A DNA stretch of 44,355 nucleotides from Escherichia coli (lineage in GTDB: Bacteria > Pseudomonadota > Gammaproteobacteria > Enterobacterales > Enterobacteriaceae): NCBI RefSeq assembly GCF_044324785.1, contig NZ_CP172130.1, one strand, 5' to 3'. The notes under the pieces were generated by a model. The model was not told the origin of the DNA. It did no database searches and worked only from the letters and a program-made list of their open reading frames with translations. Shown here in pieces: positions 3,862 through 44,316 of this stretch. Every line of letters starts with the position of its first letter. Position 1 is the first letter of the stretch. The position numbers and the translations under genes were made by a program.

Positions 3862-3882
3862 TTGAGAATTCCTCTCTTTATC

Positions 3883-4110
3883 ATGTAAAGATCATGTAAA
3901 GATCGTCTTGTCTTTACATTGTGTGTTTTCTGTAAAGATGATTTTATCTTTACAGTGTCTTTATATTACATAGGATTTACCATGTAAAGCACAAATAAAG
4001 ACAATCATGTATTTATGTTATCTTTATTTTGTAAAGACTAGCGCATCATTATATTGGCTTTACATAGTAAATCAGTACTTGTCTTTACATCATATTTACG
4101 TTGTAAATTT
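3883..4110. repeat. Array of about 11 TGTAAAG/CTTTACA heptamer repeats in both orientations (candidate centromere/operator, possibly overlapping a res site)
   Basis: Repeated CATGTAAAG, CTTTACA, CTGTAAAG, TTGTAAAG motifs between the par operon and the resolvase gene; a related palindrome CTTTACAATGTAAAG lies at about 3150..3175. Confidence 0.5.
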
Positions 4111-31740: not shown

Positions 31741-32874
31741 TCACCCTCCATACATTTTCTTTGCCCTCTCAATAGCTGCCTGACGAAGCTTTTTGGCACC
31801 AATATTAACGCCCTGTCCGGCCAGGTTAGCGGTCTTACCCGTTATTCCCGGAGACTGACCAAACCCGCCTTCCTGACGACGCAGACCTTTCCATGCACCA
31901 ATACCGGCATTTCTGCCCATACCAAGTGCGCCACGCGCCATACGGGATGCACCGAAAACGCCAGCACCAATCCCCATAGCGGCTGCGCCCTGCATGGCAC
32001 CTTCAACACCCACACCTGCAATCTGTGAAGCATAACTTTTCGCCTGCCAGATAATCCAGGCCATGAAAATGCCAGCAGCTAATGAAGTTACTCCCGTTTG
32101 AAGAAGATTGTTTTCTGATGCTGTAGCAATAGACGTACTTAATGCCATGTTTAATTGCCATGTCCCAGCTCTTAGTGCTAATGCTGCAAATAGAAAAACC
32201 AGTAACGAGCTAAAATTAAGCTGTAGCCAGCTATTAAACATTTGCCGAAGGAAACCAAACATCAAACACATGATAAATATTGGCGCAGTGACAGAAAGTA
32301 ATAGTAATGTTAATTCAGCAGCTGCAAATACTATAGAACAAAGCAATAATGCCAAAACACCACCAACATAAGTTAATAAAGCACCAATCCCACCGGCAAC
32401 AGGCACAGTAGATGTATCTTTATCAAAAATAAGAGTTGCAACTTGTATAACCTTCACCCATAACTGATCCATCCATACCCACGGATCTCCCCCTGCCAAT
32501 GTATTTTTCAATCCATCAATAGCATCTGTTGCTGATGTAAGTATTCCCCCTGTATTCTTAACAAAAAGCAATATTATGTAAAACCTACAGATATTCCAGA
32601 TAAAATCAGGTACAGGTGTCTGTTGTTTCCTTGCTAATACAGTAAAGGCATACCATAAAACATACAGAGAAACTCCATATTTACCAAGAGTATAAGCCAC
32701 ATCTGAATATTCACTTAATTTTCCAGATATACTCTTATTGAGAATGTTAAATATAACTTCATGAGTTGTCTGAAAAAAATCAGAATCAAACCCAGGAACA
32801 CCTCCCGCATTTGCGGGAGAGGTTACATTACCTGATAAATCAGTACCATCCGGTATACCAGTGACAATCCCCAT
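31741..32874 (-). CDS. pilX6: T4SS VirB6 homologue (polytopic membrane protein)
   Basis: 377 aa, multiple transmembrane segments; gene order. Confidence 0.8.
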   Translation of the reverse strand: MGIVTGIPDGTDLSGNVTSPANAGGVPGFDSDFFQTTHEVIFNILNKSISGKLSEYSDVAYTLGKYGVSLYVLWYAFTVLARKQQTPVPDFIWNICRFYIILLFVKNTGGILTSATDAIDGLKNTLAGGDPWVWMDQLWVKVIQVATLIFDKDTSTVPVAGGIGALLTYVGGVLALLLCSIVFAAAELTLLLLSVTAPIFIMCLMFGFLRQMFNSWLQLNFSSLLVFLFAALALRAGTWQLNMALSTSIATASENNLLQTGVTSLAAGIFMAWIIWQAKSYASQIAGVGVEGAMQGAAAMGIGAGVFGASRMARGALGMGRNAGIGAWKGLRRQEGGFGQSPGITGKTANLAGQGVNIGAKKLRQAAIERAKKMYGG

Positions 32875-36982: not shown

Positions 36983-37610
36983 GTATGGCGTATTGAGGAT
37001 ATATAATGATTTCTTCAGGTGTGATAGTCGTCTTGTTCTCCTTTTTAATCATTTCCTTTACAGAGGGAACAATAAAAATTTTTTTGTTATCAGGAGGGCT
37101 AAATCCTATACGTTGTACATAACTTGTATTATTAAATTCAGGTTCTGGTTTTACTCCTGTTTCTGGATTACCGGAATAATAGCAACTCAACCCGCGCACT
37201 AAGTCGCCACCTCGTTTATAACAGTCAACCAGTATTTTTTCTGATACCTTAAGATTTTCGCATGGATCAAACATTTTCTCTGCTGTCGTACCGAACTTTG
37301 CAAAATTGGTACTCGTTATTTGCATAAGTCCTACAGAGTAACGATGGTTCCGTGATTCAATGTTTTTAACGATACTAAGTGCTGCCTCCTTTGATTCAGG
37401 AAAGTAAGATACTACGCCTTTATCACCAGGTTTGTGTTTAACCTTTGGTATTATTTCCGCAATCGCATATGGGTTAAAACCTGATTCAACCCTGGCGACT
37501 TCGTGCGTTGTGTCAGGATGAACGCTGGCAGCGCATTGCATGGCAAGCGCAAGAAAAGTAGAAGTAGATAACATAAATATTCCACATTCAGAACACCGGG
37601 GCGCTATCAC
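36927..37610 (-). CDS. pilX1: T4SS VirB1-type lytic transglycosylase
   Basis: SLT-domain motifs (ESGFNPYA, GLMQI); signal peptide begins at the internal ATG (MLSTSTFLALA...), so the true start is probably 37571. Confidence 0.8.
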   Translation of the reverse strand: MIAPRCSECGIFMLSTSTFLALAMQCAASVHPDTTHEVARVESGFNPYAIAEIIPKVKHKPGDKGVVSYFPESKEAALSIVKNIESRNHRYSVGLMQITSTNFAKFGTTAEKMFDPCENLKVSEKILVDCYKRGGDLVRGLSCYYSGNPETGVKPEPEFNNTSYVQRIGFSPPDNKKIFIVPSVKEMIKKENKTTITPEEIIIYPQYAIRGTVSNEKETKDVEIKSE

Positions 37611-37819
37611 TCGTCAGGAATATCAGCCCCATGAATAAGCTCTTTCATCGCCTGAGATTTGTATTTTTTAATAAGATACTGAACAAAACCAGAATCAGAG
37701 ATACGCCTCCCCCTCTTGAAACTTATTTCAATTGCAATTTTTTCAACTTCAACACGAACTTCTGTAGGAAGGTAGAGTACATTGCGTTGCGGTTTCCGCT
37801 TTCCTTTTATAGCTGTCAT
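37607..37819 (-). CDS. Small basic protein (70 aa) upstream of pilX1, possible regulator
   Basis: ORF with 4-bp overlap onto pilX1; overlaps the 3' end of the actX frame in another frame, so one of the two boundaries is uncertain. Confidence 0.35.
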   Translation of the reverse strand: MTAIKGKRKPQRNVLYLPTEVRVEVEKIAIEISFKRGRRISDSGFVQYLIKKYKSQAMKELIHGADIPDE

Positions 37820-38303
37820 TTTTTAACCTGTCGTATTTTCTGTTACACACATAGTCGGCAAAGACTTGTCCACGCTTTGAAGCGTCTGCAAGGAGAAGTA
37901 TTTTTGCCAGACAGGAGTTATTCATCAGGCTTAAATTCATCGAAAAAATCTTCTCCTGCTCTTTTACTTCATTTATGACACTTAGAGGAACTTCAGCAGG
38001 ATATTCACCAAAACTGACCAGTCCATAAACATTTTTCATCCGGGTAAAGCAGGATGGATGTACAACCTCAAAATCCAGAAGAACGAATACATAACCGGGA
38101 AACATTGGCATGATTTGTCCCCTGTATGCACTACAGTCACGCCTCTTATAGAAAGTGCGTATAACTGGATTGTAGTAAGCGATACCGCTCCGGGATAACT
38201 GCAACAGAACCGACTGATGAAAATGCGGAGAACACTGAAGCAGGTAAAACTGTTTCTGTCCTTTCATACTCAATCCCCGATATACAGATGTGACAAAACA
38301 CAA
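37749..38303 (-). CDS. actX: NusG/RfaH-like transcription antiterminator (ActX-type activator of the pilX operon)
   Basis: Family assignment is mainly positional (first gene of the pilX operon), with weak sequence resemblance to NusG-like proteins; probable true start at the internal ATG (MKGQKQFYLL...). Confidence 0.6.
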   Translation of the reverse strand: MCFVTSVYRGLSMKGQKQFYLLQCSPHFHQSVLLQLSRSGIAYYNPVIRTFYKRRDCSAYRGQIMPMFPGYVFVLLDFEVVHPSCFTRMKNVYGLVSFGEYPAEVPLSVINEVKEQEKIFSMNLSLMNNSCLAKILLLADASKRGQVFADYVCNRKYDRLKNDSYKRKAETATQCTLPSYRSSC

Positions 38304-38619
38304 GCCAACCGTGGTTGCTTGTGAGAAATCACGCCCCTATGAAGAGAGACTTTTTACTATTGCGCGAAGTTTATACTACAAGTGGCTTATGCTAAGTTCA
38401 ACACATAAAACAGATCTTTCGATCTTGATAAATCAATTTTTCTTTCATTTATTCCATGTAAACAATAAAACATAGAATATTCATCTTTTGCAGATCTATT
38501 TTTTAGATCGATAGATCGAATGATAGCTAAAACGCAGAATTTCGATCTGTTTTTAAGGCGAAAAGATGAGCAAGCGAACTAAAATAAATATTTTTCTCGC
38601 ATAATCAATACATTAAATC

Positions 38620-39792
38620 TTATAAGCCCAAAAACTTAATCCCTGTTTTCAGCTTCTGTTCTGACTGTAACGTGGATGCTTTCTGCTGCGTAAACTGCGC
38701 CATTCGCTGTTGTTGCTTCAACAGCATATCAGGGCTGTTCAGTACCAGCTCTTTGCTGGCTGAAGGTGTTCTGTCTACGCCCTTAACCCCCAGATTTTCT
38801 AACTGCCACTCATTTCTGTGAACCGTTTTCCAGCCATGCTGAACACCATTTTTATCGAGCGCCGGGATTTTTACTTCTTTCTGACCAAGTTTCTTCAGTC
38901 TGACAAGATCACCTGCTTTAACGCTTTCCCGCGAACATAAGTCCCCAAAATCAGCCCCCCAGTATGTTTTCTCAACCCCCTTGTTAAGAGTCTTTAGCTT
39001 TATAAAATGTTGCTTAGACTTTGTTTTATCGTTCTGATAATGGTCATAGCCAATATCAACAACCTCATAAACACCTTTCTGTCTTTTTGGTGCTGTATTA
39101 TGTGCATCTTTAACAGACTGATTAAGTCCATGCTGTTGCTTATGGGTCGCTTTAACGTCATAACCTTTTAACTTCAACTCTTCACAAAAACCTGTACGAA
39201 TTTCCCGTAAATCTTTTTTCCTGATATCAGCGCGTTTACCGTCATTATCTCGGATACGAAAAACAACATGAACGTGAGGATGTTCTTTCTTATCACAGTG
39301 GTATCCAAGAACAAAACGGTGATTAGGATATTTTTTCTGCATCGTTTTCCTGACAGACTCCAGCAAATCTTCAGGCTTTACTTTCGCTGAAACTGGAGGC
39401 GAGAAGACAATATTCTGTGTGATTTTTTTATTTTCTTTACCTTTATCATTCATCACATGCTGAGGATCATTAGCACGATCTATCATGTGCTCTTTAGCTT
39501 CCAGAATTTCGTCACCCGTCCATACCCGACCGCTTTCACTCATCACTGGTAGCTCTGACTCACGGCTCATATAATCAATACTGTTCCGAATCCCCTGACG
39601 AGTAATAGCACCTCCAGATATTTTGACAACAACCTCCTTACTGGCACCCTTGCGGTTGATACGTTCCTGAACATTGCGGCTATAGTTCTTTCCACCATTT
39701 TTGACTTTGTGAGCGAAAGCTGACTTACGACCATTTTCTGATGACTTTCGTTTAACACGATATTCTTTATCAACGTAAACGCCCATAATCAC
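38620..39792 (-). CDS. taxC: Conjugative relaxase (MOBP-type)
   Basis: 390 aa; histidine triad HPHVHVV and N-terminal catalytic region; adjacent to taxA and the oriT-like repeat. Confidence 0.8.
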   Translation of the reverse strand: MIMGVYVDKEYRVKRKSSENGRKSAFAHKVKNGGKNYSRNVQERINRKGASKEVVVKISGGAITRQGIRNSIDYMSRESELPVMSESGRVWTGDEILEAKEHMIDRANDPQHVMNDKGKENKKITQNIVFSPPVSAKVKPEDLLESVRKTMQKKYPNHRFVLGYHCDKKEHPHVHVVFRIRDNDGKRADIRKKDLREIRTGFCEELKLKGYDVKATHKQQHGLNQSVKDAHNTAPKRQKGVYEVVDIGYDHYQNDKTKSKQHFIKLKTLNKGVEKTYWGADFGDLCSRESVKAGDLVRLKKLGQKEVKIPALDKNGVQHGWKTVHRNEWQLENLGVKGVDRTPSASKELVLNSPDMLLKQQQRMAQFTQQKASTLQSEQKLKTGIKFLGL

Positions 39793-43294: not shown

Positions 43295-43767
43295 AAGCCC
43301 TCCGCTTGTCTCATTGGCATAATAGCATCTTTAAAAGCACTCTTAAAAGTGCTTATGTTGAGAAAAACATCAGAACAGGTGAGATATGGCTCTTTCCGAC
43401 ATCGCCTTAAAACGCTCTGTAACGCGTTCTGAGCGTTTTTTCCCGTTTCGTTGTAGTCAGCTACGGTTTAACGGTTTTTAACGCCGCTCAACGCTTTTTA
43501 GCGGCCTTGTTGCTGTGATCTGTTGCCATGATCCGGATAGGAGTTCAATCTTGATCAAAATTTCCTCAAGGCAACGACTGTTTTGTAAATACCCTCTAAA
43601 ACGCGCTGTATCGCATTCTGAGCGATTTTTTCGATTTCGCATGTTTTCACCATGGTTGTATCGAACGAAGCGGCAGAAAGCGATTCAGGGCTTCTCAGTG
43701 AAAGATCCAAAAAGGATCAATCAACGGATCGTATGAGCTGAACTCTTCTGGTTTTGAGAAAGGAGAC

Positions 43768-44045: not shown

Positions 44046-44177
44046 AACATGAGAGGATTTTTAACGTAAGGTGAGAGGATCTTTAACATAAGGTGAGAAG
44101 ATTTTTAAGTAAGGGTGAGAAGATTTTTCACTAAAGATGAGAGGATTTTTAACGAAAGGTGAGAGGATTTTTAAGTA
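44046..44177 (+). repeat. Six tandem 22-bp iterons of a gamma-type (pi-dependent) replication origin
   Basis: AACATGAGAGGATTTTTAACGT / AAGGTGAGAGGATCTTTAACAT / AAGGTGAGAAGATTTTTAAGTA / AGGGTGAGAAGATTTTTCACTA / AAGATGAGAGGATTTTTAACGA / AAGGTGAGAGGATTTTTAAGTA; AT-rich flanks. Confidence 0.85.
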
Positions 44178-44260
44178 CATCCACAGGCTAAAAAAATATC
44201 ATGTAAAACATGATGTTATGAATTCATTTTGATGTGAATACATAAAGATCTTTATATCTA

Positions 44261-44316
44261 AAGGTGATAAGTTTTTTAACTAAAGGTTGTAATGTGTTGT
44301 TGTCATACAACCTTTA
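44261..44316 (+). promoter_or_regulatory. pir promoter/operator: iteron-like box AAGGTGATAAGTTTTTTAACTA plus 10-bp inverted repeat AAAGGTTGTA-N14-TACAACCTTT
   Basis: Lies just upstream of the pir ATG across the circular junction. Confidence 0.6.

Follow-up and report, generated by a model that had tools for sequence, protein, structure and literature searches.

A conserved cluster of paired GATC sites upstream of PactX, the transfer promoter of IncX1 plasmids, and its possible coupling to Dam methylation

Introduction

Does the dense group of GATC tetramers that precedes actX on an IncX1 plasmid couple the expression of transfer genes to Dam methylation, or is it read by another factor, or by none? 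The question concerns PactX, which is the master promoter of the type IV secretion (actX-pilX) operon and the single gate of the transfer machinery. Among the major carriers of carbapenemase and tet(X4) genes are IncX plasmids, especially IncX3, and recent work dissects PactX via VirBR, H-NS-like silencers, and an ops-like site. In IncX1, X2, and X3, plasmid-encoded H-NS-like proteins bind and repress PactX, and VirBR counteracts this silencing (PMC11214620, PMC11915502). These silencers belong to the Sfx/HppX family, including HppX3, and are displaced by VirBR (PMC11915502). For the silencer of R6K, one preprint argues that it is elongation that is hit, not initiation. ActX (PrfaH) works at an ops-like site in the 5′ UTR, and the IncX3 element was experimentally defined as TCGGGGTCATCCGAG (PMC11880322). 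The cluster would be contained in the published PactX reporter fragments, which cover 300 bp and 350 bp upstream of actX; the hosts used were all dam+.

In the literature searched on PactX and the pilX promoter (VirBR, H-NS-like silencers, and PixR), neither GATC nor methylation is mentioned, and literature searches for IncX or R6K together with GATC, SeqA, or Lrp gave nothing relevant. The IncX1–3 papers searched likewise do not mention the most conserved sequence of the region, AAAGATCT, located 11 bp from the −35 hexamer, or the paired GATCs. Dam-sensitive or small-repressor control of a transfer promoter is a known kind of control, but this instance of it appears to be undescribed.

Plasmid and gene order

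The window, i.e., the whole stretch of 44,355 nt that was analyzed, is an IncX1 conjugative plasmid (MOBP, MPF-T). The 451 bp around the cluster show 94–100% identity to 339 plasmid records, nearly all of them from Escherichia or Salmonella and typed IncX1/MOBP/MPF-T, and an identical cluster region is annotated in pFG31-1-45kb. The cargo region of the window differs from this otherwise near-identical plasmid. The window also holds three identical repeats of at least 731 bp (10270-11000, 11585-12315, and 15185-15915), about the size of IS26, one of which truncates intI1.

All genes close to the cluster lie on the minus strand, in the order taxA, taxC, intergenic region, actX, a 70-aa ORF, and pilX1 onward, with the pilX/virB genes downstream of actX (Table 1). 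An earlier note on this DNA had named taxC and the actX/pilX operon as the neighbors of the cluster. From this gene order the claim is therefore correct: the relaxase gene ends at 38620, the NusG/RfaH-like gene starts at 38267, and pilX/virB follow. In IncX3, the gene of the 85-aa VirBR protein (258 bp) is located immediately upstream of taxA.

Table 1. Coordinates of the features discussed (positions in the window)
Feature	Position	Strand	Basis or remark
virBR homologue, 90 aa	40660..40932	-	74% identical to the 85-aa IncX3 protein; published as activator/counter-silencer of PactX (PMC11214620)
taxA	40403-39789	-	ORF list/annotation
taxC, MobP1 relaxase	38620..39792	-	ORF list and pFG31-1-45kb annotation; its stop at 38620 bounds the intergenic region
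taxC-actX intergenic region, 352 bp	38619-38268	-	
Candidate VirBR box, AAATATTTATTTTAGTTCGC	38574..38593	-	best regional match to the published consensus, 4 mismatches; weak assignment
GATC S1, ACAGATCGAAA	38544..38547	.	in 9/9 IncX1-type sequences; without positional homologue in IncX3, X5, X2
Distal doublet S2/S3, minus strand CGATCTATCGATCT	38506..38517	.	on the plus strand an 8-bp tandem, TAGATCGA twice
GATC S4, AGATCT	38493..38496	.	9 bp from S3; IncX1-specific; dispensable, lost in metagenomic variant L029
AT-rich spacer between doublets	38425..38492	.	alignments: sequence poorly conserved, length fixed
Proximal doublet S5/S6, GATCGAAAGATCT	38412..38424	-	includes the invariant 8-mer AAAGATCT (38419..38412)
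Putative PactX core promoter	38373..38401	-	-35 TTGAAC (38401-38396), 17-bp spacer, -10 TAGTAT (38378-38373)
Candidate ops-like hairpin in 5′ UTR, CCACGGTTGG	38305..38314	-	inferred from alignment with IncX3 TCGGGGTCATCCGAG; sequence differs
actX, NusG/RfaH-like activator, 172 aa	37749..38267	-	ATG at 38267; Pfam NusG E=4e-11 and annotation
70-aa ORF in the actX operon	37607..37819	-	possible ribbon-helix-helix protein, candidate reader of the doublets; 61% identical to IncX3 counterpart

The GATC cluster

Six GATC sites had been reported within the 135 bp from 38413 to 38547, and a recount gives the same six, at positions 38413, 38421, 38493, 38506, 38514, and 38544, i.e., about one per 22 bp. 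The description of the cluster as AT-rich stands as well, with 27% GC in the 135-bp stretch vs 44% in the window; the cluster region is a local GC minimum (28%). The GATC density of the stretch exceeds that of the window as a whole about 14-fold, and no second 135-bp stretch of the window contains six sites. The second-densest cluster, with 5 sites in 89 bp (14824-14912), falls within the class 1 integron integrase gene intI1 and is probably compositional, because it is GC-rich coding DNA.

Base composition predicts about 0.9–1.0 GATC over the whole intergenic region of ~316–352 bp. Dinucleotide-preserving shuffles of the local sequence gave a mean of 1.5 GATC and reached six in about 1 of 1000 cases (P ~0.001), and when the 143 GATCs of the window were placed uniformly, at least six fell into some 135-bp stretch with P ~0.009. 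Both values bear out the claim that the count is far above chance. Over the whole window GATC is slightly under-represented (143 observed vs 169 expected). Within the 135-bp stretch it is the most enriched tetramer (13.8 times); TCGA is enriched too.

All six sites read AGATCK or its complement. Four of the six pair up as two GATC-N4-GATCT doublets, and these are the only two GATC-N4-GATC doublets in the window. With 4 bp between them, the two GATCs of a doublet are ~274 degrees apart around the helix and face different sides. The −35 hexamer of the putative PactX core is placed 11 bp past the end of the proximal doublet, and TTGAAM is kept at this hexamer in all subgroups aligned. The core was left uncalled by a consensus promoter scanner, because it scores 8/12. 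Read from the sequence, the start site would lie near 38366, and the homologous position in IncX3 agrees to ~7 nt with the start that follows from the published position of the VirBR site (−199 to −179). Relative to this putative start, the cluster would span −181 to −47 and the proximal doublet about −58 to −47.

The published regulators of PactX act in the same promoter region as the GATC doublets, but the doublets are separate from the mapped VirBR box and from the ops-like site of the 5′ UTR. The VirBR consensus VAAAHTTTVGHTAASTHVHC has no match with ≤2 mismatches in the whole window; the candidate box, with 4 mismatches, falls outside the GATC cluster, and the mapped IncX3 site is ~20 bp upstream of the distal doublet. 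The possibility that the cluster itself is a VirBR box was rejected, given the mismatch to the consensus and the mapped IncX3 site upstream of the doublets. As a separate observation, the IncX1 5′ UTR (38305-38314, minus strand) is without the ops-like TCGGGGTCATCCGAG of IncX3, X5, and X2 and has AACCACGGTTGGCTTGTG instead, a possible CCA/TGG hairpin with a CGGT loop. A different ActX recruitment site in IncX1, if this is what the sequence represents, fits the very divergent ActX (32% identity).

Conservation across IncX lineages

The comparison set was found via the ActX protein and consists of IncX3 (four variants), IncX5, R6K-type IncX2, two further lineages, and nine IncX1-type variants. 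Metagenome homologues were added by a scan keyed on the ops-like 5′ UTR motif, hence blind to GATC; it gave mostly chance matches, and nine true homologues were kept. Scanning species-representative genomes for the ops-like motif returned four chance matches in unrelated MAGs and nothing else. Between IncX groups ActX identity is ~30% (32% for IncX1 vs IncX3), and the mean column identity of the cross-subgroup intergenic alignment (10 sequences) is 59%. In this alignment, no invariant block anywhere in the intergenic region is longer than AAAGATCT, the invariant flanks of its GATC being AAA and T.

The proximal doublet is kept in IncX1, X2, X3, and X5, and the distal one, as GATC-N4-GATCT, in IncX1, X3, and X5. 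Four of the six sites are positionally homologous in these last three, and the proximal pair also in R6K. In R6K, identical in this region to the IncX2 representative, the proximal doublet alone remains, two point changes having abolished the distal one (CGTTCTATTGAAC). The geometry is kept as well. Computation puts the second proximal GATC exactly 11 bp before the −35 hexamer in four lineages, and the sequences of two more read the same. The distance between the doublets is 93 bp in X1 and 94 bp in both X3 and X5, ~nine helical turns, with the outermost doublet GATCs separated by 101–102 bp. The spacers within the doublets are AT-rich (TATC, GAAA, TAAA, AATC, ATTT). Among the nine IncX1-type sequences, 1 of 24 GATC columns is variable vs 53 of 188 other columns (Fisher P 0.006), and GATC columns are also less variable across five lineages (permutation P 0.007).

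Enrichment of GATC was found lineage by lineage, with 6 sites in IncX1 (P 0.004), 5 in IncX3 (P 0.002), 6 in IncX5 (P 0.006), and six in an IncF-typed MOBP plasmid with an actX-like gene (P 0.003). The extra sites are non-homologous (S1 and S4 in X1, a far-upstream site in X3 and X5, a third distal site in X5, and a seventh in locus L018), and the totals per lineage stay at 5–6 despite gains at different places. Such scattered gains look like selection on the number of GATCs, not on one operator sequence. In a diverged metagenomic lineage four GATCs are kept, and the DNA between them is now unalignable. One GATC and no cluster were found in a Pseudomonas plasmid homologue; Pseudomonas is not known to have Dam. 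One Salmonella plasmid of another type has a single GATC. IncX4, with PixR in place of ActX and the same Dam+ hosts, has no GATC cluster at its pilX promoter.

Because four sites share positions in distantly related IncX plasmids, the cluster can be regarded as a real control element. The alignments show it to be a cis element of PactX that is conserved and fixed in its geometry. The earlier note's placement of a non-random cluster upstream of the actX/pilX operon is thus supported by the conservation of four of the six sites across IncX subgroups in addition to the counts.

Two observations concern the wider organization of the region. In pSZB23-2 (locus L003) and in a metagenomic contig (L029), a mosaic junction occurs at the −35 hexamer (window 38268-38401): an IncX1-type upstream module with a near-identical GATC cluster is joined to a core promoter, ops-like 5′ UTR, and actX of IncX3 type. 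The ActX identity is 34% and the switch comes immediately past GATCTGCTTTATGTGTTGAA. Recombination thus treats the upstream control module and the promoter/ops/actX module as two separate units. In pSC2020597_48k (L013 1000-1497), typed IncFIC/IncFII, a MOBP relaxase and two tandem NusG-like genes occur together with an IncX-like ops element; the six-GATC cluster upstream includes GATC-N3-GATCT and an AAGATCT 12 bp before a TTTACA hexamer.

Coupling to Dam methylation as the leading explanation

The earlier note had suggested that the cluster may couple transfer-gene expression to methylation state. On the sequence comparisons described above this is plausible, and we would assign it a probability of roughly 0.4. 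It is proposed that the cluster would be an upstream regulatory module of PactX, with a core of two doublets ~nine turns apart to which IncX1 adds two GATCs, and that the six sites would be read via their Dam methylation state. After replication, or after single-strand entry into a recipient and copying, all six sites would be transiently hemimethylated. A dense hemimethylated cluster could then be held by SeqA, or could be bound differently by a methylation-sensitive regulator, and the promoter output would shift transiently, for example, via a disturbed H-NS-like silencer over the AT-rich region. In this way, the expression of transfer genes would be linked to replication or to a recent transfer.

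Several results favor coupling to Dam. GATC is repeatedly enriched in separate lineages while single sites come and go, GATC columns vary less than others, and the diverged metagenomic lineage keeps its four GATCs, whereas the homologue on a Pseudomonas plasmid is without the cluster. The density is SeqA-like and the S3/S4 pair has the crystallized SeqA spacing; there are also precedents in traJ of pSLT and in pap. Other results weaken it. Neither Dam nor SeqA alone requires the invariant flanks of AAAGATCT, the GATCs of a doublet are 4 bp apart on different helical faces, R6K works with two GATCs, and IncX4 has no cluster at its pilX promoter. No better-than-chance match was found for Lrp, OxyR, or Fur, the regulators known to be sensitive to methylation: the Lrp SELEX consensus has no match with ≤2 mismatches in the region, and shuffled sequences match OxyR and Fur as well as the region does, a consensus scan being a weak test in all three cases. 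Sites of further host regulators (CRP, ArcA, CpxR, Fis, IHF, and the H-NS motif) were rejected together with these on the same comparison with shuffles. The invariance of the AAAGATCT flanks and the 4-bp spacing would fit an operator of a sequence-specific protein about equally well.

A possible operator for a small plasmid protein

The alternative that deserves most attention, although we consider it somewhat doubtful, is that the doublets are operator boxes for the small ribbon-helix-helix-like protein encoded at 37819..37607 or for another plasmid protein. GATC would then be a palindromic tetramer box, boxes 4 bp apart would take adjacent dimers, and the arrays would loop and feed back on PactX, the overlap with a Dam site being incidental or a secondary layer. 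A design of this type is known for the ParG operator, in which tetramer boxes are separated by regular 4-bp AT-rich spacers, each box takes one dimer, and at least two boxes are needed (PMC3130281). The doublets, the sole GATC-N4-GATC pairs of the window, conform to this design of adjacent tetramer boxes and AT-rich 4-bp spacers, and the invariant AAA and T flanks suit an operator.

The properties of the 70-aa ORF point in the same direction. Its product is 61% identical between IncX1 and IncX3, vs 32% for ActX, and its N-terminal KPQRNtLYLP is nearly invariant. Nine of 16 homologues give weak, sub-threshold matches to Pfam RHH_5 (best E 0.011), and the predicted model consists of an extended N-terminus and two helices (pLDDT 70). 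However, the fold assignment is below threshold, with Pfam under the curated cut-off and a best Foldseek E of ~3; neither the fold search nor the PDB search gave a significant match. All four lineages with an N4 doublet have the ORF and three without the doublet lack it, but this association is confounded by shared ancestry, and lineages without the ORF keep AAAGATCT 11 bp from the −35 hexamer. When the IncX3 counterpart, rs00240, was deleted, the change in transfer was below 12-fold or there was none (PMC11880322). The extra single GATCs and their turnover are also unaccounted for by an operator. Dam coupling and an operator are compatible, and a protein competing with Dam for binding would satisfy both.

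A small ORF is likewise found before pilX1 in IncX4 (MKEKSDKSSEKGVYVTIKLDPRLNAFIEEK...), and it looks like the same strand-helix-helix pattern. The plasmid's own ParG was also considered as a reader of AAAGATC and rejected: the repeat of the par region is TGTAAAGA, and the GATCs in it are incidental. About a dozen direct or inverted copies of TGTAAAGA/TCTTTACA are located at 3880-4110, upstream of parA-family/parG genes; two contain GATC by chance, and the repeats are probably a partition operator or centromere.

A possible epigenetic switch

A further reading, which combines methylation with a plasmid protein and which we regard as unlikely, takes PactX for an epigenetic switch. The phased doublets would then be alternative binding or methylation-protection sites in the manner of pap, for a plasmid protein competing with Dam. 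This protein would be the small ribbon-helix-helix-like protein or an H-NS-like silencer. If the switch is real, the transfer operon would fire only in a heritable subpopulation, or in a burst just after entry into a new host while the DNA is hemimethylated. This third layer, so far undescribed, would lie above the VirBR/H-NS/ActX circuit of the plasmids that chiefly carry NDM carbapenemase genes.

By-product, chance, and origin as less likely explanations

Quite unlikely, in our estimate, is the view that the GATCs are by-products of AT-rich sequences serving nucleation, bridging, or curvature for the Sfx/HppX-family silencer and its antagonist VirBR, the tetramer itself having no role. In its favor, H-NS-like proteins do bind and repress PactX in IncX1, X2, and X3 and VirBR displaces them (PMC11915502). 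The region is also the local GC minimum (28%), with enrichment of TCGA. The far-upstream GATC of IncX3, X5, and related lineages sits in GATCGATTTATT, which resembles the TCGATAAATT-type high-affinity motif of H-NS. However, the H-NS motif TCGWTWAATT has 3 matches at ≤2 mismatches in the IncX1 region vs 3.0 expected, and none at ≤1. What is conserved at the core is GATC with its set spacing, and neither TCGA nor an A/T step (in R6K, GTGATCTAAAGATCT is kept and there is no TCGA), eight invariant bases are rarely demanded by binding of the H-NS type, and the mapped IncX3 VirBR site is outside the doublets. The loss of the distal doublet in R6K was also considered as the reason for the reported non-repression of PactX initiation by Sfx; this idea was dropped because two papers disagree on Sfx repression of the R6K promoter.

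Chance clustering that hitch-hikes in a conserved backbone is disfavoured and, in our view, highly improbable. The window-wide scan gives a P of only ~0.009, and the GA, AT, and TC dinucleotides raise the expectation to ~1.5; however, positions, spacing, and flanks are kept across lineages with ~59% mean column identity, and the enrichment is repeated in at least four lineages.

Least probable of all, to the point of being negligible, is a role of the cluster in replication, as unwinding element of a secondary origin or as a SeqA sequestration site comparable to the oriC 13-mers. The GATC density of oriC is similar to that of the cluster, and the oriC-13-mer-like GATCTnTTnTTTT (≤2 mismatches) occurs three times in the region vs 0.45 expected, but this excess arises because the GATCs are already present. 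Iterons are found in the window only at 44048-44175 and 44263-44280, ~5.5 kb off, and DnaA boxes are not enriched in the region; on these two grounds an origin or unwinding element was rejected. The fixed 11-bp distance to the conserved −35 hexamer points to transcription.

Near the gamma origin itself, GATC triplets with 11–13-bp spacing occur at 43704-43730 and 43517-43556, and in locus L147 at 32455-32489, a few hundred bp to the left of the iterons. The triplet at 43704-43730 is inside a 233-bp block that is 89% identical between IncX1 and IncX4, and in IncX4 a fourth site makes GATC-N4-GATCT. These triplets could be an origin-linked SeqA target. At 44244-44253, the pir promoter region has the palindrome AAAGATCTTT with the same 8-mer as at PactX, flanked on one side by the iteron array (44048-44175) and on the other by the isolated iteron-like repeat (44263-44280). 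Another copy of the palindrome, at 2463-2472, is within a coding region.

Two more candidates were rejected. A structured RNA or single-strand promoter gave no Rfam match at E≤1 and folding z-scores of −1.05 and −0.50, and for a taxC terminator, neither of the two terminator-like matches, 38237-38256 (plus strand) and 38350-38333 (minus strand), lies between the taxC stop and the cluster.

Comparison with known systems

If Dam sensing by PactX is real, it would explain the timing of transfer to replication or to arrival in a new host and would make host Dam a lever on plasmid spread; if the doublets are instead an operator for a small protein encoded in the operon, a missing feedback loop is revealed. 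Both possibilities can be set against systems that are already known. As expected of a Dam-regulated promoter of the pap, traJ, or agn43 type, PactX has more than one GATC whose position is conserved.

Camacho and Casadesus are said to have described, in 2002, the regulation of conjugal transfer of the Salmonella virulence plasmid by Lrp and Dam. In pSLT and F-like plasmids, Dam and Lrp control traJ, Dam controls finP, and hemimethylation after replication or transfer modulates transfer genes. The traJ promoter of pSLT, like PactX, drives the master activator of a conjugative operon and has a Dam target in its upstream activating region. However, in this F-type system a single GATC is located inside an Lrp site, whereas PactX has six, including two N4 doublets, and no Lrp consensus. 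The PactX system is also IncX, MPF-T, and MOBP, and its activator, unlike TraJ, is a NusG/RfaH paralogue.

The second precedent is pap, a switch for the phase variation of pili. Its GATC-proximal and GATC-distal sites, checked in the pap sequence, are 102 bp apart, a distance similar to the 93–94 bp between the doublets of PactX (101–102 bp for their outermost sites), which also lie upstream of a pilus-type operon. The flanks are also similar, ACGATCTTTTA in pap and CGATCT/AGATCT followed by a T-rich stretch at PactX. In contrast, the pap system (Lrp, PapI, and Dam) uses single GATC sites, while PactX has doublets and no Lrp SELEX match; no PapI-like product is present in the annotation of a near-identical plasmid.

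Compared with the SeqA clusters of oriC and the dnaA promoter, the density of GATC at PactX is similarly high, and the S3/S4 distance of 9 bp is the separation used in the SeqA–DNA crystal structure, the smallest spacing in the SeqA series being 5 bp (PMC2691817). However, the conserved pairs of PactX are 4 bp apart, below this minimum and on other helical faces, and there are no origin features nearby.

In the ParG system, the operator OF and parH share with the doublets the tetramer boxes, the 8-bp register, the 4-bp AT-rich spacers, and the need for at least two adjacent boxes. The metboxes of MetJ are likewise 8-bp operator units of a ribbon-helix-helix protein. ParG arrays contain 8–12 boxes, whereas at PactX there are two, the box is GATC, and the candidate small gene would be located in the regulated operon itself.
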